A stretch of DNA of 22,961 nucleotides, from NCBI GenBank assembly GCA_036507075.1, contig DASXQR010000121.1, forward strand, positions 1 to 22,961, read 5' to 3'. Positions 3,190-22,961 of the stretch are shown one piece after another. The notes below the pieces were generated by a model. That model was not told where the DNA came from, ran no database searches, and was given only the letters and a program-made list of their open reading frames with translations. The DNA is from Acidobacteriota bacterium (lineage in GTDB: Bacteria; Acidobacteriota; UBA6911; JACQSX01). Every line of letters starts with the position of its first letter. Positions within the stretch are counted from its first letter, which is position 1. A program made the position numbers and the translations under genes.

Positions 3190-4478
3190 AGCTGCGAATC
3201 GCGCTCCTGATGCTTCTTTTCATGATGGAGGTCTTGCGCGGGCAAGGCGACAATTACGTCATCCGCAACGCCCGCATCTTCACGGTGAGCGGTCCGGTCA
3301 TCGAAAACGGCACTGTGGTGATCGAGAACGGCAGGATAACTTCGGTAGGAGCGCGCGTTGTGGCGCCTTCGGGAGCGAAAATCATCGAGGGCCGCGGTCT
3401 GAATGTTTATCCGGGGATAATCGATGCCAATACCACGATGGGCCTGACCGAGATCAGCTCTGTTGCTGCCACTGTTGACACAACCGAACTGGGAGATTCC
3501 AACCAGGCTCTTCGCGCCTATGATGCGATCCACCCCGAAAGCGAACACATTCCCGTGACGCGAGCCAATGGCATAACCACCGTCCTTTCCCATCCAAGCG
3601 GCGGGATGTTGGCCGGGCAGGCCACTATCTTCAACCTGGACGGCTGGACGATGGAAGACATGGTGGTCAAAAAATCCGCGGGCCTGGCGCTCAATCTTCC
3701 AACTTCCGTGGGTGGCAGACAGTTTGACCGGACCACATTTTCCGTAACGCAGCGCAAATACTCGGATGCAAAAAAGGATCTTGAAGCCAAGATCCAGCAG
3801 TTGACCGACATTCTCAACCAGGGCCGGCGCTACATGCAGGCTAAGGAGGCCGCCCAGAGAGACCCCAGTCTTCCTGCCGCCAGGCCCGATCCTAAGATGG
3901 AAACCCTGATTCCATTGCTGAAAGGCGAGATGCCGCTGCTGTCGTTTGAAAACAACCGATTGGACATCAAGCAGGCAGTCGAATTCGCTGAAAAGCAGAA
4001 GTTGAAGATCATCATCATGGGCGGCTCCGAGGCGGGAAAGATTACAGACTATCTGAAACAAAAGAACGTGCCGGTCATTTATGGGCCCCTGCTGGCGCTT
4101 CCCGGCGAGCGGGACGACCCTTATGATCTGGCATATTCCACTCCGGCGATGCTGTCGAAGGCCGGTGTGAAGTTTGCCATTGCTTCGGCCGATACCTCCG
4201 ATTCCCGTAATCTGCCCTATGACGCCGGCAACGCGGTTGGCAGCGGGCTAAGCGAAGAAGAAGCGTTGAAAGCAATCACTCTCTATCCGGCGCAGATTCT
4301 TGGAATCGACGACCAGCTTGGAAGCATCGATAAAGGAAAGATTGCCAACCTGGTGGTCACATCCGGGAATCTTCTCGAGATTCCTACGGAAGTAAAATAC
4401 GTCTTCATCCAGGGACGGCCGGTGAATCTTGAGAATAGACAAACTCGTTTGTATCAAAAGTACCTTAACCGGCCGTAA
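3186..4478 (+). CDS. Exported amidohydrolase-fold protein, probably non-catalytic
   Basis: ATG at 3186 overlaps the upstream TGA (ATGA) and follows GGAGG at 3174-3178. Signal peptide; [10 protein letters not shown] (no HxH), NGITTV and [13 protein letters not shown]. Confidence 0.85.
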
Positions 4479-4486
4479 TTTAAGTC

Positions 4487-4699
4487 GAAGGTCTGAAAGT
4501 CGAAGATCTCAACGCCGTCGGAACCGCGCCCGCAAGCCTGGATTATTCGAAAAAACTTAACCACCAAGACCGCCAAGAGCGCCCCGACCTTTGCGCGGTT
4601 CTTAGCGCTCTTGGCGGTCTTTGCGGTGAAATTGTTCGAATAGTCCAGGCTCACGGGCGCGGTCCCGATGGTATTGAGATCTTCAAACTTTCGACCTTC
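4487..4699. repeat. Long imperfect palindrome with a 9-mer-repeat core and 7-mer-like ends
   Basis: 4502-4551 pairs with 4635-4684 (43/50). Core is ACCACCAAGACCGCCAAGAGCGC / GCGCTCTTGGCGGTCTTTGCGGT. Confidence 0.9.
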
Positions 4700-6136: not shown

Positions 6137-6283
6137 AAGTCGAAAATCGAAAGTCAAAGGCTTCACCGCAGAGTCGCAAAGAACGCCAAGTCGCGCTGAG
6201 ATTGTGATGAACTCTGCGGAAACTCGGCGGTTCTCTGCGGCTCTGCGGTGAAGCCTTCGAACTTCAGACCTTCGCTTTGACTT
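6137..6283. repeat. Nested palindrome: 7-mer-like outer arms (AAGTCGA type) around a 9-mer core
   Basis: AAGGCTTCACCGCAGAGTCGCAAAGAAC / GTTCTCTGCGGCTCTGCGGTGAAGCCTT, flanked by AAGTCGAAAATCGAAAGTC and CGAACTTCAGACCTTCGCTTTGACTT. Confidence 0.9.
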
Positions 6284-7376
6284 ACTGCGGCAGTATAACG
6301 ATCGGCAGGCTTGAGGTCTGGAACCCGCCCAGAGTCCGGACGCTGGTTGCGACCACCGGCACATCCGTTGACTGCACCTCAATAGAGCCGCTGAATCCGG
6401 CCGGGATAAACCCGACAAAAATTTCGCGAATGAACCGTGCCAGTTGAGTCCGCGGAGCCAGCGTGATGGACTGCGTCGTCAATGTTCCGCCAAGGGCATC
6501 ACGCAGCGTCATGCTCACTGTGGCGGTGGCTATCTCGCTGCAATTGGCAAAAGCGAGCGCCGTTTCAAAATTGTCCTTGAACTCGACCGGAACGAAGAAG
6601 TGGGTTGCAGGCGGAGCAGAACCTACGCCCGCTTCCGTGACAAAGGCCCCCGAAGAATTAAAGAACTGATACAGCGCCACACCGCCGATTCGGACCGCGG
6701 ATTTGACCCGCGCCCAGCCCGCCGCCAGTGTCGGCCGGGTGCCCGAAGTACTGATTGACAACTGAGAGTTTGGAGGAATGAAGAATTCGAAAGTAGCCGA
6801 AGGCCCGCCTCCCACAGTGGTTCCGATAGTTACCGGAAAAGGGTTCCCGTCAGTGGTGAAAAAGTCCACTGTCACCTGCGCCGCTGCGTTGTTCGGGTTC
6901 ACCAGAATAATGGTGGTTCGGAAAGACCCGCCGGGAATTTTACCCTCAGCAATCTGGGCAAAATAGAGATCGCCGGTAATAGTGAGTGTTGCCGTGTTTG
7001 TTGATACCCCTCCGCCAGGATTCAACAGGCTGATGGTTGCCGTGCCCACGTTTGCCACATCCGTCGCCAGAAGCTGGGCCCGCAGTTGGGTGCTGCTCAC
7101 GAACGTTGTCCCACGGTTCTGCCCATTGATTCTCACGACAGTGCCGTTGGCTCCCCCGGCGGGGGCTACAAAATTAGAGCCATTGACTACCAGTGTGAAA
7201 TTTGGGCCGCCTGCCGGCAAAGAGGTTGGATTAATGCTGGAAATGCTGGGAAGGGCTGTGGTCCCCTGCTGGAATTTAAAGAGGACTTCCGGTAGAGCGG
7301 ACGATGTTGCCGCCATTGCCACTCCGCTGAAAGCAAAGGCCTGACTCAGTAAACAAAATAATAGAATTTTTCTCAT
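6282..7376 (-). CDS. Secreted protein with an IPT/TIG domain and two tandem beta-sandwich domains
   Basis: Signal peptide MRKILLFCLLSQAFAFSGVAMA and GGAGAGG RBS. IPT-like PSISSINPTSLPAGGPNFTLVVNGSNF...TTFVSSTQLRA. Internal duplication LYFAQI...TTIILVNP / FFVPV...TALAFAN. Confidence 0.75.
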   Translation of the reverse strand: MRKILLFCLLSQAFAFSGVAMAATSSALPEVLFKFQQGTTALPSISSINPTSLPAGGPNFTLVVNGSNFVAPAGGANGTVVRINGQNRGTTFVSSTQLRAQLLATDVANVGTATISLLNPGGGVSTNTATLTITGDLYFAQIAEGKIPGGSFRTTIILVNPNNAAAQVTVDFFTTDGNPFPVTIGTTVGGGPSATFEFFIPPNSQLSISTSGTRPTLAAGWARVKSAVRIGGVALYQFFNSSGAFVTEAGVGSAPPATHFFVPVEFKDNFETALAFANCSEIATATVSMTLRDALGGTLTTQSITLAPRTQLARFIREIFVGFIPAGFSGSIEVQSTDVPVVATSVRTLGGFQTSSLPIVILPQ

Positions 7377-7492: not shown

Positions 7493-7558
7493 ATCGGCGC
7501 GCACAAGTTGCGGGTTACGAATTATCAGCGGCAGGTTGCGCAGCAAGCTCGACCTCAA

Positions 7559-7723
7559 AATGCGGAATGCGGAATGCGGAATGCGGAATGCGGAATGCGG
7601 AATAAAAGCTGCCTGTCGTCCGTTGTCCGTTGTCCATTGTTCGCTAACTGATCACTTAGCGACGGACCACAGACGACGGGCCACGGACAATTATTCCGCA
7701 TTCCGCATTCCGAAATCCGCATT
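7559..7723. repeat. Nested palindrome of two different heptamer arrays
   Basis: (AATGCGG)x6 at 7559-7600 and about four ATTCCGC units at 7693-7720. Inside are TTGTCCG-type and CACGGAC-type arrays around TCGCTAA...TTAGCGA. Confidence 0.95.
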
Positions 7724-8800
7724 CTAGGAGCGGGTCGTTTGCGGCTCTGCAGCAGGCACGCTCTGCAGCGCCAGTTGGCCGCAGGCGGCGAAAATATCCA
7801 CGCCGCGCGGCTTGCGCACAAATGCCGAAACGCCTTTGGATTCCAAAGCTTTCTGGAATCGCTCCACATTTTGCCCGGCAGGGGTCTGATATCCGAGAGC
7901 GGGATTGTAGTTCCAGGCAATCAGGTTGACCTTGGCGCGCATGCCCGAAAGCAATTTTGCCAGGGCGCGCGCGTCCTCAAGTGAGTCATTGACCCCGGCC
8001 AGAAGCACATATTCAAATGTGATGCGGCGTCGGGAATCGAGTGGAAATTCACGGCAGGCTTGCAGCAAAGCCTCAATGTTCCACTTCCTGTTGATCGGCA
8101 TGATTTCGGACCGGACGCTGTCATTGGAGGCATTCAAGGAGATGGCAAGGTTGGGGATGATCGGCTGCCGGGCGAGTTTCCTGAGCCCGGAGACAACGCC
8201 GCTGGTCGAGACAGTGATTCGCCGCGGTGAGATCGCCATTCCTTCCGGATCGCACAGGATCTCGAGCGCGCGCATCACCTGCGTGAAGTTGTGGAGCGGC
8301 TCGCCCATACCCATCAACACGATGTTGAAAGACTGATCACGGATGACTCCGCTTGCCTGCGCATGCAGGGGTTGGCCGGCAATCTCGCCTGCAGTCATAT
8401 TGCGCCGCAGGCCCAAGGTCGCAGTGGCGCAGAAAGTGCACCCGACGGCGCACCCCACCTGGCTGGAAATGCAAAGGGTCTCGCGCCGTGTCTCCGGAAT
8501 AAAAACCGTCTCGATCCGCTCGCCGTCTTCCAGCTCGAGCAGCAGCTTGATTGTGCCATCCTTGGATTTCTGCTCGCAATGGAGCCTGGGAAGTTCGAGC
8601 CGGAAATTCTGCGCCAGCAGCACACGCAGCGGACGCGGGAAGTCGGTCATCTGCTCAAAATTGAGAATCTTTCGAGCATAGATCGAGTGATAAAGCTGCC
8701 GCCCGCGGTAGGCAGGTTCGCCGCGCCGCGAGAGAAGCTCAACCATTTCCGGGCGGGTCATCCCGATCAGGTTATTTTGTTCCGCTGCGTCGGGCGTCAT
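7724..8800 (-). CDS. rlmN: 23S rRNA m2A2503 / tRNA m2A37 methyltransferase RlmN (radical SAM)
   Basis: IETV, CISSQVGCAVGCTFCATA (CxxxCxxC), MGMGEP, TVSTSG, ISLNA, FEYVLL, GVND and AACGQL motifs. ATG at 8800 follows AGAAGGA. Confidence 0.95.
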   Translation of the reverse strand: MTPDAAEQNNLIGMTRPEMVELLSRRGEPAYRGRQLYHSIYARKILNFEQMTDFPRPLRVLLAQNFRLELPRLHCEQKSKDGTIKLLLELEDGERIETVFIPETRRETLCISSQVGCAVGCTFCATATLGLRRNMTAGEIAGQPLHAQASGVIRDQSFNIVLMGMGEPLHNFTQVMRALEILCDPEGMAISPRRITVSTSGVVSGLRKLARQPIIPNLAISLNASNDSVRSEIMPINRKWNIEALLQACREFPLDSRRRITFEYVLLAGVNDSLEDARALAKLLSGMRAKVNLIAWNYNPALGYQTPAGQNVERFQKALESKGVSAFVRKPRGVDIFAACGQLALQSVPAAEPQTTRS

Positions 8801-8857
8801 AGATCCTTCTATTCTACAGGCAATGAAGGGCGTCGTTGAATTTGAGAACAAATCGGA

Positions 8858-8936
8858 ACCGCGAAGGCGCCAAGGCGCGAAGAATCACCCTTCCCATTCT
8901 CCGATCTTAATGTTCGCGCTTTCGCGCCTTCGCGGT
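8858..8936. repeat. Palindrome with short tandem-repeat arms (ACCGCGAAG type)
   Basis: ACCGCGAAGGCGCCAAGGCGCGAA / TTCGCGCTTTCGCGCCTTCGCGGT. Confidence 0.9.
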
Positions 8937-9018
8937 AAAGCTTTGGACTCCCCCCAAACCCTGTTGCATGGCTCACCACGCTGTGTTATCAGTTAGGTGC
9001 TGAGGAGATGGGCGCTAA

Positions 9019-12393: not shown

Positions 12394-12496
12394 AAGGCGC
12401 TAAAGACTGAACCGCCAAGAACGCCAAGAACGCTAAGATTTTTTTATGGAAATCTTGGCGTTCTTCGCGTTCTTGGCGGTTCAATCTTTCGCCTTT
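12393..12496. repeat. 9-mer-arm palindrome between convergent genes
   Basis: TGAACCGCCAAGAACGCCAAGAACGCTAAGATTT / AAATCTTGGCGTTCTTCGCGTTCTTGGCGGTTCA, extended by AAAGGCG...AAAGA / TCTTTCGCCTTT. Confidence 0.95.
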
Positions 12497-14043: not shown

Positions 14044-14165
14044 GCTCCCGAATAATTTGCGCAGGCCGCGAAAATTCTCATGGTTAGTAACTCGACCACT
14101 ACCGGGTTTAACCAAAATTGACTTAGCCGGCCCGTCTGATGTATCTAGAGATAGCTGTTCCGTTA

Positions 14166-16001
14166 ATGAGGCGAGCCACGCATCGAATCCTGCTGTTTTT
14201 GGCGATAACAGGGCTTCTTCTGTGCACTGCTGCGTTCAGCAGCGATCCCTACTGCCCTGCCTACCCCGTTTCGCTTCGCCAGGTTGACAAAGAGAGCCGC
14301 CAGCAAGAGCGTCTCTTTCACCAGTTCTCGACCCTTAAGCATCGCCCGCTGGTGCGCGACGTTGCCGCCGCAAACTTCATTGACGACCACATCTTCGGCA
14401 AGATGCTGGCCGATGGTATTGAGCCGGCGCCACTTACCACGGATTCCGAGTTTCTGCGACGTGTCAGTATGGACTTGACGGGCCGCATCCCTGCGCCCGA
14501 GGCGGTGGAAGCCTTCGTACGGGATGCAAACCCGGACAAGAGAGCTGCGATGGTGGACGCTCTGGTCGGATCGGAAGCGTTTGTTGATCAGTGGACCTTC
14601 TTCTTCGCCAATCAGTTCGAGGTCGGCAGCACTTATTACAACTTCATAGGCATCCCGGGTCGCAATTTGTTTTACCGCTATTTGCGTGAATTTGTTGCGC
14701 TGGACAGACCCTACCGGGACGTTATGGCAGAGCTTGTTGCAGCGGCAGGGAATTCTCACAAATTCGGGCCGCCGAACTTCCTGATCCGCGGATTTCAGCA
14801 AGGCGATCCCATCCAGGACACATGGGACACGCTTACCGACCGGGTGACTCTGAAATTTCTCGGCGTCAAGACCGAATGTGTCTCCTGCCACAACGGCGCA
14901 GGGCATCTGGAAGCCATCAACTTGTATCTCTCCCGGCGCACGCGGGAAGAGTTCTGGAGACAGTCTGCTTTTTTCTCGCGGCTGAATCTGTGGCTCACGC
15001 CGGTGGACGTTTTCAGCCAGCAGTTTCGCGGATTCATTTGGGACCGGCTGACCGGCGGTTATCACGGAAGCGTAGACCCGAACAATCCCGGGCCGCGGCC
15101 GGCTCGCGAAGGAGGTCCCTTCGAGCCGGCTTACATGTTCACAGGCGAGCGCACCAGAAACGGCGAATGGCGCAAGGAGCTGGCCCGGATGTTGGGGTCC
15201 GATCGCCAGTTTGCGCGGGCCACGGTGAATTACATCTGGAGTCGTTTCTTTACTATCGGGATTGTGGATCCGCCGGACGGCTGGGACCTGGCAAGAATCG
15301 ATCCCAGGAATCCGCCTCCCCCGCCATGGACCCTGCAGCCGTCGCATCCGGAACTGCTGGAAGCGCTGGCCGATGAATTTATCCGCAGTAACTACAGCAT
15401 CCGGCGAATCATCGGTCTGATTGCCAAGTCCAATGCGTATCAGTTGTCCAGCCGCTATCCGGGCACATGGAAGCCGGAGTACGAGCGCTATTTTGCAAAG
15501 CATATTCCGCGCCGCATGACGGCCGAAGAGATTTACGACGCAGTCAGCATCGCGACGATGACGGAAACACCGATGGTGATCGAGGGTTTTGACCAGCCGC
15601 TCTATTACGCCAACCAGCTACCCGATCCGAGCGAGCCGCGTTACGACTACAACGTGTTTGACTTTCTGTTCAACTTTGGCCGCGGGGACTGGTTTCTACT
15701 GCAGCGCAACCCGAAAACCAGCGTTATTCAGTTGCTCTATCTCATGAATGACGGGAGGGTGAATTTCCGGCTGCTTGGGAATCGAAGCGGCAGCGGCAGC
15801 ACGCGGGTGGCAGTACTGGCTCAGTCGCTGCAGAATGACGACGAGGTAGTGCGCCAGCTTTTTCTGTCCACGCTCAGTCGCTATCCGAGCCAGGAAGAAT
15901 TGGCGACGGCTATGACCCGCAAGCGGGACGATCGTGAGCTGTGGCTCTCAGATCTGCAGTGGGCGCTTTTAAATAAGCTCGATTTTATTTTTAACTATTA
16001 A
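14166..16001 (+). CDS. DUF1549/DUF1553 (planctomycete PSCyt2/PSD1-type) exported protein with one CxxCH
   Basis: Signal peptide; NFIDDHI...DSEFLRRVSMDLTGRIP, CVSCH, FARATVNYIW, PSHPELLEALADEF, RRMTAEEIYD and C-terminal DLQWALLNKLDFIFNY. The start could be 14139. Confidence 0.88.
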   Translation: MRRATHRILLFLAITGLLLCTAAFSSDPYCPAYPVSLRQVDKESRQQERLFHQFSTLKHRPLVRDVAAANFIDDHIFGKMLADGIEPAPLTTDSEFLRRVSMDLTGRIPAPEAVEAFVRDANPDKRAAMVDALVGSEAFVDQWTFFFANQFEVGSTYYNFIGIPGRNLFYRYLREFVALDRPYRDVMAELVAAAGNSHKFGPPNFLIRGFQQGDPIQDTWDTLTDRVTLKFLGVKTECVSCHNGAGHLEAINLYLSRRTREEFWRQSAFFSRLNLWLTPVDVFSQQFRGFIWDRLTGGYHGSVDPNNPGPRPAREGGPFEPAYMFTGERTRNGEWRKELARMLGSDRQFARATVNYIWSRFFTIGIVDPPDGWDLARIDPRNPPPPPWTLQPSHPELLEALADEFIRSNYSIRRIIGLIAKSNAYQLSSRYPGTWKPEYERYFAKHIPRRMTAEEIYDAVSIATMTETPMVIEGFDQPLYYANQLPDPSEPRYDYNVFDFLFNFGRGDWFLLQRNPKTSVIQLLYLMNDGRVNFRLLGNRSGSGSTRVAVLAQSLQNDDEVVRQLFLSTLSRYPSQEELATAMTRKRDDRELWLSDLQWALLNKLDFIFNY

Positions 16002-16002
16002 A

Positions 16003-16236
16003 ACCCGGAGGTCAGAATCCGAGCCGCGCGCGTCAGCAAGCGGACCTTCAGCGGAGAGTGCCACGAAGCGACGAAGGCACGAAGAATCGCTGTTCATTCT
16101 GAAGTGACACTTCTCATAACTCGATTCGGGTTGTCTGAGAAGTGGCACCTCTAAATCAATAGTTATCCTTCGTGTCTTCGTGGCGAAACTACCCGCGGAG
16201 GGTCCGCTTGCTTACGCGCGCGGCTCGGACTTCGGG
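16003..16236. repeat. Multi-layer nested palindrome
   Basis: Outer arms 16018-16054 / 16193-16229; middle arms 16060-16094 / 16158-16184; inner arms 16101-16116 / 16136-16151. Confidence 0.92.
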
Positions 16237-16255
16237 CAGTGATAGAGGAGATGCA

Positions 16256-17590
16256 ATGAAGAACTGTGCCAGTTGCAACAAGATCACGCGCCGGCAATGG
16301 ATTTCAGGAATGACTGCCTGGGCGGCGCTGGCCGCGCTCACAAAGCGGGGCGATGCGCAGATTGCCTCTTCTCAGGTGAACGTTCAGGGTACCGCGCGGG
16401 CCTGCATCTTCATCAACCTGAGTGGCGCTCCAAGCCATCTGGACACATTCGATGTAAAGGACGCCCCTTGGAATCCTGCGGACGTAAATCTGAGACAGCA
16501 CGCGGGCGGCATTGTGCTCTCCAATACTCTGTTTCCTGAAATCTCCAAAATTGCAGGCGACCTGTGCCTGCTGCGCTCGGTGGTCAGTTGGGAAGCCGCT
16601 CACGAGCGGGGACAGTTCTATCTGCAGACAGCCCACCCGTCAAACCCCGCGTTCGTTACAGAAACCCCCCATATCGGCGCCGTAGTGGCGCTCGAGCGCG
16701 GCGGTTCCGGGCCCGTTCCACCCTTCTTAACCTTGAATGGGACCACGCGCCAGGGCGCCGGCTTTCTGGATGGAAGGGTCGCGCCGGTCTCGCCGCCTCT
16801 GAATCCGGGAGGATTGAGTAACTTCGAGCACCAGAATCTGAGCAAAATCCAGTTTGATGAGAAATATCGACTGCTCGAAGATCTCGACGCCGCGCTTCGG
16901 GCCGCCCCTTACGACAAGTCCATGGCGGATCATGTGGCGTTCTATCGATCGGCCAGGCAGCTCATGTACGATCCTTCCGTGTCGGCGGTGTTCAGATTTA
17001 CGGCCGATGAGGAACGACGTTACGGCGGCACTCAATTCGCCCGCGCCTGCATCGTGGCGCGCAACGCCGTGAAGGCGAAAAATGGAGCGGTCTTTATCAA
17101 CATCGATTATGGTGGATGGGATACACACCAGAACATGTTCGACCGTAAATACGCTCCCAATATGTATACGCTGTGCAACGAACTTGACCGGGGCGTGGGC
17201 GCGCTGGTGGAAGACCTGAAGCAGAGTGGAGATTTCAAGGAAACGCTGATCGTAATGATGGGTGAATTCGGACGTACGCCCGGACCGCTGAATGGCAGGG
17301 GAGGCCGGGATCACCACAAGAACGCTATGAGTGTCGCCATGCTGGGCGGCGGCGTCAAAGGTGCGACCATCATCGGGGCTACGGACGCAAACGGGGAACG
17401 CGTTGTCGAGCCGGGCTGGAAGGCACAGCGGCACATCGTGATGGAAGACATCGCCGCCACGCTTTATTCGGCACTGGGCATCAATTGGACAAAGAGTATT
17501 ACCGACACTCCCACCGGCCGCAGATTTGAGTATGTGCCGTTTTCGAACAACTACACCGCGATCGATGAAGTTTTCCAGGCTAACGCTTAG
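16256..17590 (+). CDS. DUF1501 family protein with a Tat signal
   Basis: GAGGAG RBS before ATG 16256. ITRRQWI twin-arginine motif; CIFINLSGAPSHLDTFD, GGWDTH, GEFGRTP, GRDHH, LGGGVKG and DIAATLYSALGI. Confidence 0.9.
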   Translation: MKNCASCNKITRRQWISGMTAWAALAALTKRGDAQIASSQVNVQGTARACIFINLSGAPSHLDTFDVKDAPWNPADVNLRQHAGGIVLSNTLFPEISKIAGDLCLLRSVVSWEAAHERGQFYLQTAHPSNPAFVTETPHIGAVVALERGGSGPVPPFLTLNGTTRQGAGFLDGRVAPVSPPLNPGGLSNFEHQNLSKIQFDEKYRLLEDLDAALRAAPYDKSMADHVAFYRSARQLMYDPSVSAVFRFTADEERRYGGTQFARACIVARNAVKAKNGAVFINIDYGGWDTHQNMFDRKYAPNMYTLCNELDRGVGALVEDLKQSGDFKETLIVMMGEFGRTPGPLNGRGGRDHHKNAMSVAMLGGGVKGATIIGATDANGERVVEPGWKAQRHIVMEDIAATLYSALGINWTKSITDTPTGRRFEYVPFSNNYTAIDEVFQANA

Positions 17591-17593
17591 ATT

Positions 17594-17837
17594 TCGGAAT
17601 GCGGAATGCGGAATGCGGAATAATCAGATTTGTCTGTGCGGCAAACGTGGTTGCGTTCAGGGGCGTGGACGGGGTTATGGACTTTTTGGTTGGGACTGAG
17701 CGGTGAGATGCCCGGGTCGAGCAGGACAAAATCGTAGTTATTCCGCATTCCCCATTCCGCATTCCGAATTCCGAATTCTGCATTCCCCATTCCGCATTCC
17801 GCATTCATCATTCCGCATTCATCATTCCGCATTCCGA
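17594..17837. repeat. Heptamer-arm palindrome; the right arm is 14 ATTCCGC-type units inside a CDS
   Basis: Four (G/T)CGGAAT units at 17594-17621 and 14 in-register ATTCnnn units at 17740-17837. The stem continues inward (AATCAGATTTGTC / GACAAAATCGTAGTT). Confidence 0.95.
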
Positions 17838-20603
17838 ATTTTTCTTTTCCTCAATCTCGCCGGTGGATATCTTCTCGCCCAGGGCCCCCCGAGCCGAATA
17901 TATGTCAGCTCCCCAGCCGCCCGATTGATTTCGGGCCAAAAAGTCCAGGTTTCCGCTGTCACAAGAGACGCCGCCGGCGCTGTGCGCACCGGTGACTCCT
18001 TCAACTGGACGAGCAGCGACAACAACATACTTTCGGTGGACTCCTTTGGCGTGGTGACAGGACGGCGGCTGGGAATGGCCAACGTAACAGCAATGCTGCA
18101 GTTGCCCAATGGGAGCCTGAGAGGAACCATTCGCCTGCAGGTCCTGCCTTCGAGGCTGCTTGTCACTCCCGCCGCCACGCAGGTCTTTGTGGGCGACACT
18201 TTGCAATATTCCGCCACGGCCCTTGATATCGACGGCGTCCCTATTCCCAACATTCGATTTCAATGGAGGGTGAATGGAGCCAATGGGTTTTTCACGCAGG
18301 CGGCTCGGATTGAAGATTCGGGGTTGATGAGCGCGCGCGCTCCTGCTGTCGTAACAGTTCGTGCGTCGTTCGGCTATCAATACTCATTCGGCCAGTTCGT
18401 CAATGAAGTCGCCGGCACGGCGACCGTCGAAATAAGAACACGGCCGGATTATCGGCTGCGGCGATTGCTTTCAACCGAAGAAGTCGCCACCAGTTTCCGC
18501 CTCAGGCTCTCAAACAGCTCTATCGCAGTCAATGAAAACGGCCAGATTGCATTCGTTGCCAACCTGGACGGCCTGGCGTCGGCTTTGCTGCTGTACGAGG
18601 CGGGCAAGTACCGCGTGCTGGGGTCCGGCGGTGTTCCCGGACCTACTGCCGGCACCACGATTGCTAATTTCGATTCGCCCGTAATTAACAGGAAGGGCGA
18701 GGTTCTTGCCAGAGCCAGTGTGAACCGCGGTCCCGGCGGCCTGTTACTTGCATCGGCAACAACTTCTTCCTTTGTGGTGCTCGACGGCCAGAGAGGAGCG
18801 GGGTTTCAGAACCTGTGGGGAGCCAGGCTGTCGCGAGACTGCTTCAATGACAAAGGAGAATTTCTATTCACGGCCAGTTTCCAGTATCCCGGTTCGGAAG
18901 AAAATCTCCCGGGGCTGTTCCGGTACTCCAATTCCAGGGTTGACCTGCTGTGGACGTCAACCATTCCGCTGCCGGGATTCTCATCCGCCGCCTGGATCGG
19001 CGACTTTGGGATTGATGGCAGTGGCGTGGGCTATTTTTCCGCTTTTACGGACAGCGCGGGCGGGGTGTTTCGCCAGCAGGGTTTCGACGCAGCGACGCGA
19101 GTGATCGGTACCGGAGACTCGCTGGCCGGTTCCCGTGTCCGCAGCATCCGCGGATTGGCCTTAGCCCCTTCCGGAGAGCTGGCCGTCGGCTTGGATTTAG
19201 AGAACAATGCCAGCTACATCGTAAGATACCCAAGAACGGGTGCGGCCGCTCCGGAAGTGATTTCTGTTCGAAATCAGTTCAATATTCTTTCCATCAACGC
19301 AGACGCGGGCCTGTTGTTCCGGGGAGACGGCGGGCGCGGATGGGGGTTGTACCGCTGGTCCAACGGTGTCGTCCTTCCCGTGCTCCTGGACGGAAAGCTG
19401 GCTCCTAACGGCGAGCCTCTTCGAAATATTTACGCCGCTTCGTTGCTTTCCTCGGGAACAGTGATCGCGGAGATGGAGACGTCGGAAAACCCGTTCGTCG
19501 TTGCCAGACTCGGCAGCTCAAAGAATGTTCTTTTCCAGGCCGGCGACTGGCTGGATGTTGCGGCAAATCTGGATGCTTTCAATCTTGCCGGAGCATCGAG
19601 CGACGGCACGCTTTATCTGTTGTCGACAAGCAGCGGCAGTCTGTTCGAAATGACGCGCTCGGGACTGGTGCCCAGGCTGATTACAGGCGATCGGCTTTCC
19701 CCCACCAACACTTTCCGTGGAACGAACTCAAATCAGTTCAAAGTAACTTCCGGAGGAGATCTGTACTTTACCTCAGAGAATTCGTTGTTCCGTTTGACCA
19801 GAGAGCGTATTGAAAGCGTTCTCTCTTTCGCGCTGGAGTCGGACGGGGCCTCCGTCTGGACCCCCTACTCGATCGCAGTCAATCAGGCTGGAACCATGGC
19901 ATGGCTCGCCGGCACCAATCTCGGGCAGGACCGCCTTTATCTTACGCGGGGAAACCGCCATACGCTGCTGGCGACGTTCGTGAACGGACTTGTGCTGGGC
20001 GGCGGGTCGCCGCAAATCGGTCCTCCCGGTCTAAAATTCCATCGGATTTCGGAAATTGCCCTCGATGAATCCGGCAGGGTGATGGCGCGTTTCGAGCGCG
20101 ACGACGGTTCTTCCGCGTTCTTCCTTTACACCGGTACCGCATGGCAATCAGCCAACCTGGCGGAAGGCGCATTGTTTGCCGGCCAACCCATTTATTGGGG
20201 AGGCAACCTGAAAGCTGTCGGCAACAGCTTCTACGCAGTCTTGAACTCCCGGTCCAATAGTTCAATGCTTGGCCGTTTTTCCGACCAGAAATGGGCGCCG
20301 ATCATCGAACCCGATGAAACTCTGCCCGATGGCAGCTCAGTAATGTCGGTTCAATCTTTTGACGTCAATCGCCGCGGCGAAGTGGCGGCGCTTGTCCATC
20401 TGGGATCGCTGCAGGCGCTGATTCTGCGTGCCGGCGAAACGACGCGCATGATTTACGCGAATAATCAAAGCACAGAATCCGGCGATCAGTTTTCTAATCA
20501 GATCTGGGACATTCTGCTGCTCGAAGATCGCCGCGTTTTCTTTACGGGCCTGAATCTGCAGGATCGCTATCTGCTGTACGGCGCGGAGCCGCTCTTTCCA
20601 TGA
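17703..20603 (+). CDS. Large secreted protein: two Ig-like (Big_2-type) domains plus NxxGxxAF tandem beta-repeats
   Basis: WTSSDNNILSVDSFGVVTG...G and YSATALDIDG...FQW Ig-like motifs. Repeats NENGQIAF, NRKGEVL, NDKGEFLF, NQAGTMAW and NRRGEVAA. Predicted cleavage at LLA-Q. Confidence 0.85.
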   Translation: MRCPGRAGQNRSYSAFPIPHSEFRILHSPFRIPHSSFRIHHSAFRIFLFLNLAGGYLLAQGPPSRIYVSSPAARLISGQKVQVSAVTRDAAGAVRTGDSFNWTSSDNNILSVDSFGVVTGRRLGMANVTAMLQLPNGSLRGTIRLQVLPSRLLVTPAATQVFVGDTLQYSATALDIDGVPIPNIRFQWRVNGANGFFTQAARIEDSGLMSARAPAVVTVRASFGYQYSFGQFVNEVAGTATVEIRTRPDYRLRRLLSTEEVATSFRLRLSNSSIAVNENGQIAFVANLDGLASALLLYEAGKYRVLGSGGVPGPTAGTTIANFDSPVINRKGEVLARASVNRGPGGLLLASATTSSFVVLDGQRGAGFQNLWGARLSRDCFNDKGEFLFTASFQYPGSEENLPGLFRYSNSRVDLLWTSTIPLPGFSSAAWIGDFGIDGSGVGYFSAFTDSAGGVFRQQGFDAATRVIGTGDSLAGSRVRSIRGLALAPSGELAVGLDLENNASYIVRYPRTGAAAPEVISVRNQFNILSINADAGLLFRGDGGRGWGLYRWSNGVVLPVLLDGKLAPNGEPLRNIYAASLLSSGTVIAEMETSENPFVVARLGSSKNVLFQAGDWLDVAANLDAFNLAGASSDGTLYLLSTSSGSLFEMTRSGLVPRLITGDRLSPTNTFRGTNSNQFKVTSGGDLYFTSENSLFRLTRERIESVLSFALESDGASVWTPYSIAVNQAGTMAWLAGTNLGQDRLYLTRGNRHTLLATFVNGLVLGGGSPQIGPPGLKFHRISEIALDESGRVMARFERDDGSSAFFLYTGTAWQSANLAEGALFAGQPIYWGGNLKAVGNSFYAVLNSRSNSSMLGRFSDQKWAPIIEPDETLPDGSSVMSVQSFDVNRRGEVAALVHLGSLQALILRAGETTRMIYANNQSTESGDQFSNQIWDILLLEDRRVFFTGLNLQDRYLLYGAEPLFP

Positions 20604-22961
20604 AAAGAAGGAACCGCAAAGAACGCCAAGAACGCCAAGGCTTCAATGGCTCTAGTCCAATTCACTTACGGCATATGGTTGAAGCGGTGAACCAAATCCA
20701 ACATGCAGGGCGATACCGCCTGACTAAATGTAATATTCTTGGCGTTCTTTGCGCTCTTTGCGGTTCACTTTGCGGTTCCGTTTTTGCGCAAAGTCCGCCC
20801 ATCGCGCAGATCGAAGTGACGGCCGCGCAGAACTATGTCGTGAGCGGAAGATTCCTCCAGCTTCAGGCGCGCGCATATTCCGCCGCAGGCTCCACTATCA
20901 ACAATTTCTCGGCCCAATGGAGATCGGCCAACCCGGAGATTGCCGAAATCAATAGCACCGGCATGGTCCGCGGACGCCTGCCCGGAACAACATCGATCGA
21001 GGCGATCGCCGCTGGTGTCAGCGGCAGACTTTCGCTGCGCATTTTTCCGGGCCACATCGAGGTCAAGCCGGACCGGCTCGACCTCCAGATTTATCGAAGC
21101 GCGGCGATAACGGCTCGAGCGCTCGACGCGGACGGCAATCCCCTGTCTTCCCGCTTTATCTGGTTCAGCGGCATCCCGGCAGTGGCGACCGTCGACGCCG
21201 CCGGCCTGGTGACCGCACGGGGAGAGGGCTCCACGACCATCACGGCGCGGCTGGATCTTCCCGAGGCTCCTTTCAACTTTGCGGCAACTGCGATAGTCAA
21301 TGTCCGCCGTCCCGGTTCGTTTGAACTTTCGCGCCTGATTTCCAACGAGCTGCAGAATCAGCCCGTCGTTTTGCGAGATATTACCGACGTCTCGCTGTCC
21401 AGCAAAGACCATCTGGCGTTCACCGGAATTCTTTCCAACGGTTCGCAGGGAGCTTTCCTGTGGGAGAAGGGGAACCTGAGAACGCTTGCCATTGCCGGCG
21501 AGTACCAGGAAGCCTTAGGTCAGATTATTGTCAATTTCGGTCCTGTCTCGGTCAACGCCAGAGGAGAAGTGCTGGTGACGGCTCTTTTGCCGGTGTGGCC
21601 GAATCAGGCGTTGCTTCTCTATCGTCCCGGATCCGCGGCGCCGGAGAACGTGACGATCGCAGGCGATTATGGCGGTCTTGGAATCGGGCCACGCTCGCTG
21701 AGCGATCGAGGCGAGATCGTCTTTCAAACCTGGAATTCTCAAGGGAACTACGTGCTGCTGCGGGGAGAGGATGGGCGGATCAAGACAGTGATTTCGGCCG
21801 GCCAGTCTTTACCCGATTTCGGCGCCGTGGAGTGGTTAGGGCCACCCTCGCTTACTCCTTCGGGAAGGGTGATATTCCCGGTCGGTGCTCCAAATAAAAA
21901 TGGGTACTATCTCTGGGACGGCAAAGAGAATCGAAGGATCTACATTACCGGACAAACCCTGGGAGGACGAGTCATAGGTTGGGGCGGCGAGCCAATGGAA
22001 GCTGCCGGGGGCGATCTTTTCGTTCAGTTGAACGTCGACGGCTCCAATCAGATTGTCAGGTATTCTGCCGGCATTCTGACTGCTGCTGTTTCAGACGGCC
22101 AGGCGTTTCCCGGAGTTGTCATCGGCAACCTGTGGTCCTTGTACGACGTGCGCGGGGGCGCGCTGCTTTTCGGAGCGGGCACTGATCAGGGGGGGCGATT
22201 GCTGAGGTTGGAACAAGGATTCGTGGACACGGCGGCGCGGTTTGGATCCGCTGCGGAACTGAATGAATGGACCCAGATCAACCAGGCTTTCATCGCCAGT
22301 GACGGCAGCGTGATTGTGCGCGGTTACCAGGGGAAAACGCCTTCGAAGGTCTCCAGGCTTTCCGGTTCCTTCTCAGAGAGGCTGCTTCAGAGCGGCACAA
22401 GCTTGAATATCGCCGCTTCCACTTCGCTGTTTTGGGCAAATCTGAGCGGCGGCGGCGACGTTGGAAATTTGACCTTCCTTGGCCCCGGAGGTCCGGTTCG
22501 AGTGGGCAAGAGCAGCGTGCAGCTTGGCGCGGGGCCCGGGGATCCTCTGCCCGGTGGAAATATTCTGACGCGAGTAAATAACGCGGGAGCCAACCGGAAC
22601 GGTGACTTCGCCATGGCGGTGGACACCCTTAACGGACAGTCCTTGTATCTGCTCAAGAACGGGCGGCTGAGCGTGGTTGCCGAGTCTAACGGCACGATAA
22701 AAACGGCCGGCGGTAATACCGTCAATGGTTTTTGCTGCGGACCGGTCGCCTTGAACAATCGCGGCCAGATTGCCTCGTTTGTCAATTTTGACCAGGGCAG
22801 CGGGATGGCGCTGATTACTCCCAACGAGAGTGTTGTGAAAGTCGTGTTCACTTGGGGTAGTCCGGCGCCCGGCGGCAGTACTTATAATTGGGTTCAAAAT
22901 CTCGCGTTGGACGAGAGCGGACGCATTCTGTTTGCGGCCAATCTGCAGGATGGAAGCAATG
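20600..22961 (+). CDS. Paralogue of the upstream Ig-like/NxxGxxAF protein, truncated by the window end
   Basis: ATG 20600 overlaps the upstream TGA (ATGA). Manual translation: MKRRNRKERQERQGF...ILGVLCALCGSLCGSVFA-QSPPIAQIEV...WRSANPEIAEINSTGMVRG...WFSGIPAVATVDAAGLVTARGEG...NARGEVL...NNRGQIAS. No stop was seen. An alternative ATG lies at 20675. Confidence 0.85.
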   Translation, partial: MKRRNRKERQERQGFNGSSPIHLRHMVEAVNQIQHAGRYRLTKCNILGVLCALCGSLCGSVFAQSPPIAQIEVTAAQNYVVSGRFLQLQARAYSAAGSTINNFSAQWRSANPEIAEINSTGMVRGRLPGTTSIEAIAAGVSGRLSLRIFPGHIEVKPDRLDLQIYRSAAITARALDADGNPLSSRFIWFSGIPAVATVDAAGLVTARGEGSTTITARLDLPEAPFNFAATAIVNVRRPGSFELSRLISNELQNQPVVLRDITDVSLSSKDHLAFTGILSNGSQGAFLWEKGNLRTLAIAGEYQEALGQIIVNFGPVSVNARGEVLVTALLPVWPNQALLLYRPGSAAPENVTIAGDYGGLGIGPRSLSDRGEIVFQTWNSQGNYVLLRGEDGRIKTVISAGQSLPDFGAVEWLGPPSLTPSGRVIFPVGAPNKNGYYLWDGKENRRIYITGQTLGGRVIGWGGEPMEAAGGDLFVQLNVDGSNQIVRYSAGILTAAVSDGQAFPGVVIGNLWSLYDVRGGALLFGAGTDQGGRLLRLEQGFVDTAARFGSAAELNEWTQINQAFIASDGSVIVRGYQGKTPSKVSRLSGSFSERLLQSGTSLNIAASTSLFWANLSGGGDVGNLTFLGPGGPVRVGKSSVQLGAGPGDPLPGGNILTRVNNAGANRNGDFAMAVDTLNGQSLYLLKNGRLSVVAESNGTIKTAGGNTVNGFCCGPVALNNRGQIASFVNFDQGSGMALITPNESVVKVVFTWGSPAPGGSTYNWVQNLALDESGRILFAANLQDGSN
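20611..20766. repeat. 9-mer-arm palindrome lying inside the 5' coding region
   Basis: GAACCGCAAAGAACGCCAAGAACGCCAAG / CTTGGCGTTCTTTGCGCTCTTTGCGGTTC (27/29); total length 156 bp. Confidence 0.95.

Follow-up and report, generated by a model that had tools for sequence, protein, structure and literature searches.

A hairpin repeat element as the predicted signal peptide of a Big_2 protein gene in Acidobacteriota

The window analysed here, 22,961 nucleotides long, is the entire contig C121 of a 6.1-Mb genome (G000) of an Acidobacteriota bacterium that is present in soil metagenome runs; a GWxTD gene in the genome points to this phylum as well. A gene for a predicted secreted protein, cut by the contig end, begins with a MITE-like hairpin element that is open in frame (Table 1). 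The predicted signal peptide, K2 to F62, is almost wholly repeat-derived, the exceptions being the start codon and A63/Q64. Judged from the sequence and its homologues, the repeat probably now serves as the Sec signal of this gene.

Table 1. Features of the window that bear on the element and its host gene
Positions	Strand	Feature	Remarks
12399..12492	.	Intergenic short-spacer copy	9-mer arm family
17586..17842	.	Heptamer (ATTCCGC) hairpin element	Right arm in frame, forming the n-region of the upstream paralogue from GTG 17703
17703..20603	+	Upstream paralogue, 966 aa	Big_2 + DUF7453; conserved partner
20578..20655	+	Putative remnant of the former start	ACG where homologues have ATG; frame stops at 20653
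20600..22961	+	Predicted secreted-protein gene	2 x Big_2 + beta-propeller region; cut by the contig end, rest on G000:C85
20600..20602	+	Candidate start 1	ATG over the upstream stop; 63-aa signal, n-region charge +8
~20603..20785	.	MITE-like hairpin element, 9-mer family, 183 nt	Codons K2-F62; ends estimated from the terminus typical of the family
20603..20639	+	A-rich left terminus and arm	Encodes KRRNRKERQERQ if the start is ATG 20600
20640..20734	+	Spacer, common to 13 other copies (51-65% identity)	Encodes RYRLTK right before the h-region; contains the alternative starts
20675..20689	+	Candidate starts 2 and 3	ATG 20675 (38-aa signal), GTG 20687 (34-aa signal)
20735..20766	+	T-rich right arm	Encodes ILGVLCALCG, the predicted h-region; 9-residue hydropathy 2.94
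20767..20785	+	12-bp in-frame arm-end duplication and terminus	Encodes SLCGSVF (remaining h-region and c-region)
20786..20791	+	A63/Q64, predicted signal peptidase I site	Column as in homologues

The hairpin element and the predicted signal peptide

A preliminary description of this DNA had claimed that a 156-bp palindromic element is open from ATG 20600, with a charged left arm and a hydrophobic right arm. The frame is indeed stop-free across the element, the ATG overlaps the stop of the ORF 17703-20603 as ATGA, and the arm peptides are as described. The interval 20611-20766 is 156 nt and forms a long hairpin (-64 kcal/mol), but the element is larger. The family terminus extends ~10 nt past the GCGGT core, and the left end of sister copies is complementary to the outer of the two duplicated segments. 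Thus, this outer segment is likely to be the element end, and LCGSVF is repeat-derived as well. The arm-end duplication is real and is the single case among 251 arms. The claimed similarity to the intergenic copy at 12409-12482 also holds, over 25 nt at 96% and 31 nt at 90%. The spacer differs from its 13 sister spacers at 15 of the 55 columns conserved among them. Positions 20640-20710 share with these sisters the motifs AATGGATCT and ACAxTTCAAA (computed majority line), partly decayed in the window copy; the conserved motifs could be a promoter or binding site.

Sec signals cleaved by signal peptidase I (Sec/SPI) follow the n/h/c model. The window gene shows a basic n-region (charge +8, +2 or +3 depending on the start), an uncharged hydrophobic core with a hydropathy of 2.94, and V61-F62-A63 as the V-x-A at -3/-1. 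It differs from a typical signal in its Cys/Gly-rich core (I46-C58 includes two Gly and one Ser), its coding by a repeat and, if translation starts at ATG 20600, its long n-region. Neither a Tat nor a lipoprotein signal was seen by inspection: MKRRN lacks FLK, and no Cys follows a lipobox. The signal was assigned by hydropathy and homologue alignment. Thirty-seven homologues were compared, namely 35 of the best 150 matches (those with a full-protein match and the N-terminus present) and two paralogue relatives; fragments without N-terminus, one fusion and Ig-repeat proteins were left out, and the homologue tree is a quick version.

An N-terminal 9-residue hydrophobic stretch is present in 37/37 homologues (hydropathy 2.0-3.4). 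The column of A63/Q64 holds A, S or G at -1 in 35/37 and Q at +1 in 33/37, and the mature fold begins behind this conserved column. The median signal length of homologues is ~22 aa. The arm-derived stretch is the sole hydrophobic segment ahead of the mature domain; with the predicted signal and the family cleavage column, this supports the proposal that the repeat was exapted as a secretion signal.

Taking out 20611-20766 leaves MKRRLCGSVFAQ, whose best 9-residue hydropathy is 0.54, as had been anticipated. This bears on the idea that the hairpin is skipped or excised (by RNA splicing, a ribosome hop or precise DNA excision) and an ancestral signal restored. The long stable stem and the GxxExxY gene found between the same arms elsewhere would suit such an event. 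No host h-region lies on either side, though, so that removal gives no signal, and no element-skipping joint is present among the rows listed for four DNA runs. Skipping is therefore very improbable.

Much the same weight can be given to the view that the h-region is an ordinary signal resembling the repeat by chance, or that an assembly chimera is at hand. The sister protein P0004 does have LGILGV at the same place. Against this, the arms and spacer can be aligned over their full length to 13 other copies, repeat matches occur in just 5 of 5560 internal hydrophobic stretches, and the contigs of several runs agree. The element region in the contigs of X1 and X2, two runs that may be the source of the assembly, is identical to the window, and the X4 contig has a single synonymous change across 20564-20772. 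As far as the contigs tell, the element region is no assembly artefact. FFSRDSR and LGILGV of P0004 were considered as arm-derived, but neither has an exact 6-mer match; FFSRDSR is explained by the gene overlap, whereas LGILGV may still come from an arm. SPPDLGG of P0035 has a one-mismatch match only and was left uncounted.

The host gene is intact. From ATG 20600 no stop occurs up to the contig end, and joining C85 via a 141-nt overlap yields a product of 958 aa, with a mature frame of 895 aa; disruption beyond the window, considered in the preliminary description, is not observed. P0003, a database protein of 933 aa whose call begins at ATG 20675, has a continuation identical to the C85 join. 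Another contig, C84, was rejected as the continuation, since it gives 74 codons and enters the reverse strand of another gene. The last 141 nt of the window (22821-22961) are also the start of the C84 reverse strand, fused there to an unrelated gene; this is an assembly branch, possibly due to a chimeric or rearranged copy. In the P0003 model, two Big_2 domains are followed by a confidently predicted all-beta region (mean pLDDT 89). Residues 1-40 have a block-mean pLDDT below 50, and the confident fold begins just past the predicted cleavage site. Fold search with the all-beta region returned generic double beta-propellers only, at 10-13% identity, and the Atlas match for the protein was DUF7453 at 0.93. 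Directly upstream of both Big_2/propeller paralogues are DUF1549/DUF1553 and DUF1501 genes (14139-17590), and nested hairpins at 16018-16229 overlap the 5' end of the DUF1501 gene.

Start codon and history of the gene

There is about an even chance that translation starts at the coupled ATG 20600; otherwise, GTG 20687 or ATG 20675 is the start. The right arm is read from all three candidates, in agreement with the claim that it would still be used from ATG 20675. A start downstream of 20766 had been named as a possible objection; from the arm to Q64 there is no in-frame ATG, GTG or TTG, and translation from the next in-frame candidate, GTG 20816, would truncate the first of the predicted strands. 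The Shine-Dalgarno (SD) scores are -6.0 at 20600, -0.3 at 20675 and -3.7 at 20687; they were obtained with a generic anti-SD sequence since the 16S end of this genome was not found, and in this genome such scores are a poor means of telling starts from internal ATGs (medians -3.9 vs -3.2).

If translation begins within the spacer, at 20675 or 20687, and so takes in no more than the rest of the spacer and the right arm, the hairpin would be an RNA terminator or stabiliser between the paralogues. The exaptation would then be kept and the whole-element claim dropped. Granted the exaptation, this reading comes close to an even chance without reaching it. Signals of 34-38 aa are closer to the family norm, and both starts lie in a more open loop (unpaired 0.5 vs 0.34). 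The gene caller picked 20675, and this ATG appears to be derived from ACA, the codon at this position in 8 of 13 sister copies. Elsewhere in the genome, the genes on C7 and C177 must start within spacers. Conversely, ATG 20675 is almost without SD, ATG 20600 has the ATGA coupling, and in two other genes the frame runs unbroken through the entire element from a start coupled to a stop.

Judging from the homologous proteins, the gene probably once started elsewhere than at ATG 20600. A Y-x-A-E-P-like reading one base earlier is found at 22/35 homologue N-termini versus 114/1648 control N-termini. In P0004 (46% identical), the sole such reading is YGAEP, the C-terminal motif of the upstream paralogue. 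These readings suggest that the ancestral start lay within the last codons of the partner. P0054, a natural fusion of both protein types, supports their adjacency. At the position of this putative overlapping start, the codon is now ACG and the frame stops at 20653, so that the old start and signal appear lost. Full-length homologue DNA was not found in 60 relatives (Big_2-level matches only), in 136 class genomes, in contig scans, or in 400 phylum genomes by a weak scan that scored 2-3 candidates per genome.

The following history may be proposed. The element would have landed behind the upstream stop, between the old n- and h-regions of a gene that began ~25 nt inside its partner. The old h-region would have been deleted and the old start would have decayed to ACG. 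The 12-bp duplication may then have lengthened the new hydrophobic core, and the T-rich arm in frame would act as the Sec hydrophobic core, with predicted cleavage at A63/Q64.

For the upstream paralogue, the preliminary description had proposed a signal from a different repeat family. This stands in part: a heptamer arm is in the n-region, but the h- and c-regions resemble those of the 73% identical orthologue P0030. Repeat-derived n-regions are also present in homologues P0030, P0039 and P0048. Exact matches to repeats of G000 account for 29/776 signal 6-mers (23 of them from P0030) versus 13/30,728 mature 6-mers.

The repeat family and its recurrence at N-termini

The 9-mer family comprises 251 arms genome-wide, versus 0, 0 and 1 in three shuffles. 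They form 79 inverted arm pairs, and none in the opposite orientation is present within 300 nt. The repeat mask of the genome includes ~5,500 segments of several families. A first blastn search gave no relative of the spacer, and it was taken as unique; this was overturned by nhmmer, which revealed a spacer subfamily of 14 copies including the window copy, with a model made from four copies, the window copy among them. The common spacer, 51-65% identical, suggests that the unit spread whole and that the window copy is old. The element is MITE-like: it is short (183 nt), multi-copy (14-member subfamily, 79 pairs), bounded by terminal inverted repeats and without transposase. No target-site duplication was found in the 79 elements (shared flanking 4-, 5-, 6- and 7-mers 28/5/0/0 vs shuffled 30/8/2/0.7), with the limit that a 2-bp duplication would escape detection because the termini are fuzzy A/T tracts. 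Of the 79 elements, 59 lie behind a stop. Random placement in intergenic DNA would give 7%, but within the elements' own small gaps the expectation rises to as much as 59%, so stop targeting is unproven.

There is no conserved peptide ORF across copies. The left-arm frame is open in 3/13 copies, and 50/366 frames are open overall.

The GxxExxY gene (TIGR04256) at G000:C83:12770-13330 is the sole gene identified between 9-mer arms. Its protein is a candidate mobiliser of these arms; GxxExxY proteins are not known to have transposase activity. ORFs resembling four-helix bundles and RAYT were seen by eye between other arm families, not between 9-mer arms. In the window, more intergenic hairpins of several arm families, some nested, are at 4472-4699, 6149-6288, 7554-7726 and 8844-8950. 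Left arms end six genes, on C48, C60, C77, C100, C164 and C201 of G000, providing the last codons and the stop (tails like NREERQER). In-frame repeat insertions within coding cores (G000:C152, C75, C62, C39 and C151) amount to at least 49 rows, some of 100-200 nt; many of the rows are only 16-17 nt and are likely chance matches.

A genome-wide scan for repeat-derived N-termini, as had been suggested, was based on a heuristic gene model of our own, with its signal calls and repeat mask. N-terminal signal-like stretches overlap repeats in 51/1393 cases versus 5/5560 internal hydrophobic stretches. Approximately 24 of the 51, judged by eye, are without an own start and signal downstream, and the others are untranslated leaders or unclear. 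A repeat-for-signal swap has likely occurred in these ~24 genes. An additional 34 (uncurated) overlap repeats in the n-region only. Signal peptides are thus a recurrent niche for repeats in the genome, as the preliminary description supposed, and in relatives. In relatives, the signal core of a 67% identical sulfatase orthologue is partly made of an arm of this family, read in a different frame, and an RND orthologue has an element in the n-region. GWxTD homologues have mostly ordinary signals. Repeats also lengthen two or more proteins at the N-terminus that seem to be cytoplasmic, which suggests that the niche is partly plain tolerance.

Twenty-seven in-frame 9-mer right arms were compared, with one low-score row dropped and classes assigned by eye. 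Arms without a usable own start lead exported-type proteins in 6/6 cases, versus 5/21 of the others (p 0.0016). These six are a GWxTD protein, a sulfatase, an RND adaptor, a prepilin, the window gene and one whose 76% identical orthologue has a signal. The frame fits the role. Four arms without host h-region are in a hydrophobic frame (C121, C192, C4 and C7; one from the all-family scan), and three arms followed by a host h-region are in a charged frame (C200, C177 and C152; p 0.029). The whole element is open in 4/6 two-armed cases versus 31/148 null frames (p ~0.02 by hand), and three of these four begin at a stop-coupled start. Because the arms are complementary, an A-rich arm is charged and a T-rich arm encodes Leu, Val, Phe or Cys in two of three frames, and insertions in those frames can rescue exported proteins.

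It is unlikely, but has to be weighed, that the insertion killed the real signal and start, leaving a young pseudogene or a barely expressed gene whose signal-like reading is a by-product. The ancestral start appears dead. The palindrome fixes the arm orientation: the T-rich arm, hydrophobic in two of its three frames, always points toward the gene that follows, so an insertion that is neutral or harmful would look like exaptation. The left-arm frame of the window is also open in two sister copies without a same-strand gene behind, and its openness may be inherited rather than selected. A signal as long as 63 aa, or initiation at the foot of the hairpin, could be inefficient. At C4, an element cuts a signal off out of frame: at locus L024 (G000:C4 ~40200-40550, minus strand), the old signal (MKRMLKPILVFCLL...) is upstream in another frame. 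There, an element of the same subfamily lies ahead of the mature part, with a Phe-rich arm and a spacer that contains an ATG, and the 76% identical orthologue has a normal signal. The locus is either being rescued or has been inactivated.

On the other side, the window copy is old by its spacer divergence and the mature frame is still intact. A charged-frame arm directly against a mature exported domain was seen in 0/7 cases. The 12-bp duplication keeps the frame. A normal-length signal with a lone arm exists at C192, where only this arm is present inside a 22-aa signal. Function is favoured by the fit of frame to role, although the numbers are small, and by the survival of a long open frame next to an old element.

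Comparison with known systems and significance

The peptides of Rickettsia palindromic elements (RPEs) remain in the folded protein. REP/RAYT units, in which a short REP palindrome with a terminal tetranucleotide lies next to a RAYT gene, are a hairpin system of comparable kind. RPEs are ~150-bp dispersed palindromic elements read in frame within protein genes (Ogata et al. 2000, reviewed in PMC10969869), and they carry a conserved peptide ORF (PMC10969869). The window element and others resemble RPEs in sitting in frame in protein genes. They are unlike RPEs in having arms built of tandem 9-mers and no frame that is kept across copies, and the window element occupies the place of a signal peptide.

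The Yersinia RU-2/YPAL repeat forms part of one predicted signal, that of YPO1552, and enterobacterial RU-1f fusions are a related precedent (Delihas 2007, PMC2759123; Delihas 2008, PMC2229807). RU-2 and RU-1f involve a few loci and part of a signal. In the present genome, repeat sequence makes up almost the entire signal of the window gene, whose old start appears to have gone; more than one repeat family takes part, ~24 genes are concerned, and one locus shows an intermediate whose former signal is orphaned. As in REP/RAYT and the Ssn/SRM hairpin-nuclease pairs (PMC11893778), the hairpins number in the hundreds and, in a rare case, the arms enclose a small gene; its GxxExxY product is of a type other than RAYT and GIY-YIG. 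In the literature outside subscription papers and supplements, no paper on wholesale genome-wide signal replacement was found.

We tentatively propose, as a reading that falls just short of an even balance, that self-complementary tandem-repeat elements may act as signal-peptide cassettes. They would serially overwrite export signals behind stops in coupled operons across the secretome of the lineage, one arm serving as the charged n-region and its complement as the hydrophobic core, with selection keeping the frames that fit. Gene callers cut such genes, as in P0029, the database form of the paralogue, which starts past the signal, and exported proteins are therefore mislabelled. One genome would hold several stages, namely a whole element in frame, an orphaned old signal and a lone arm, and would illustrate a concrete route from non-coding mobile DNA to a protein-targeting signal in bacteria. 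This may help explain the fast divergence of signal peptides. If the cassette reading is true, mobile DNA, not point mutation, would be a main source of signal-peptide turnover in these bacteria.
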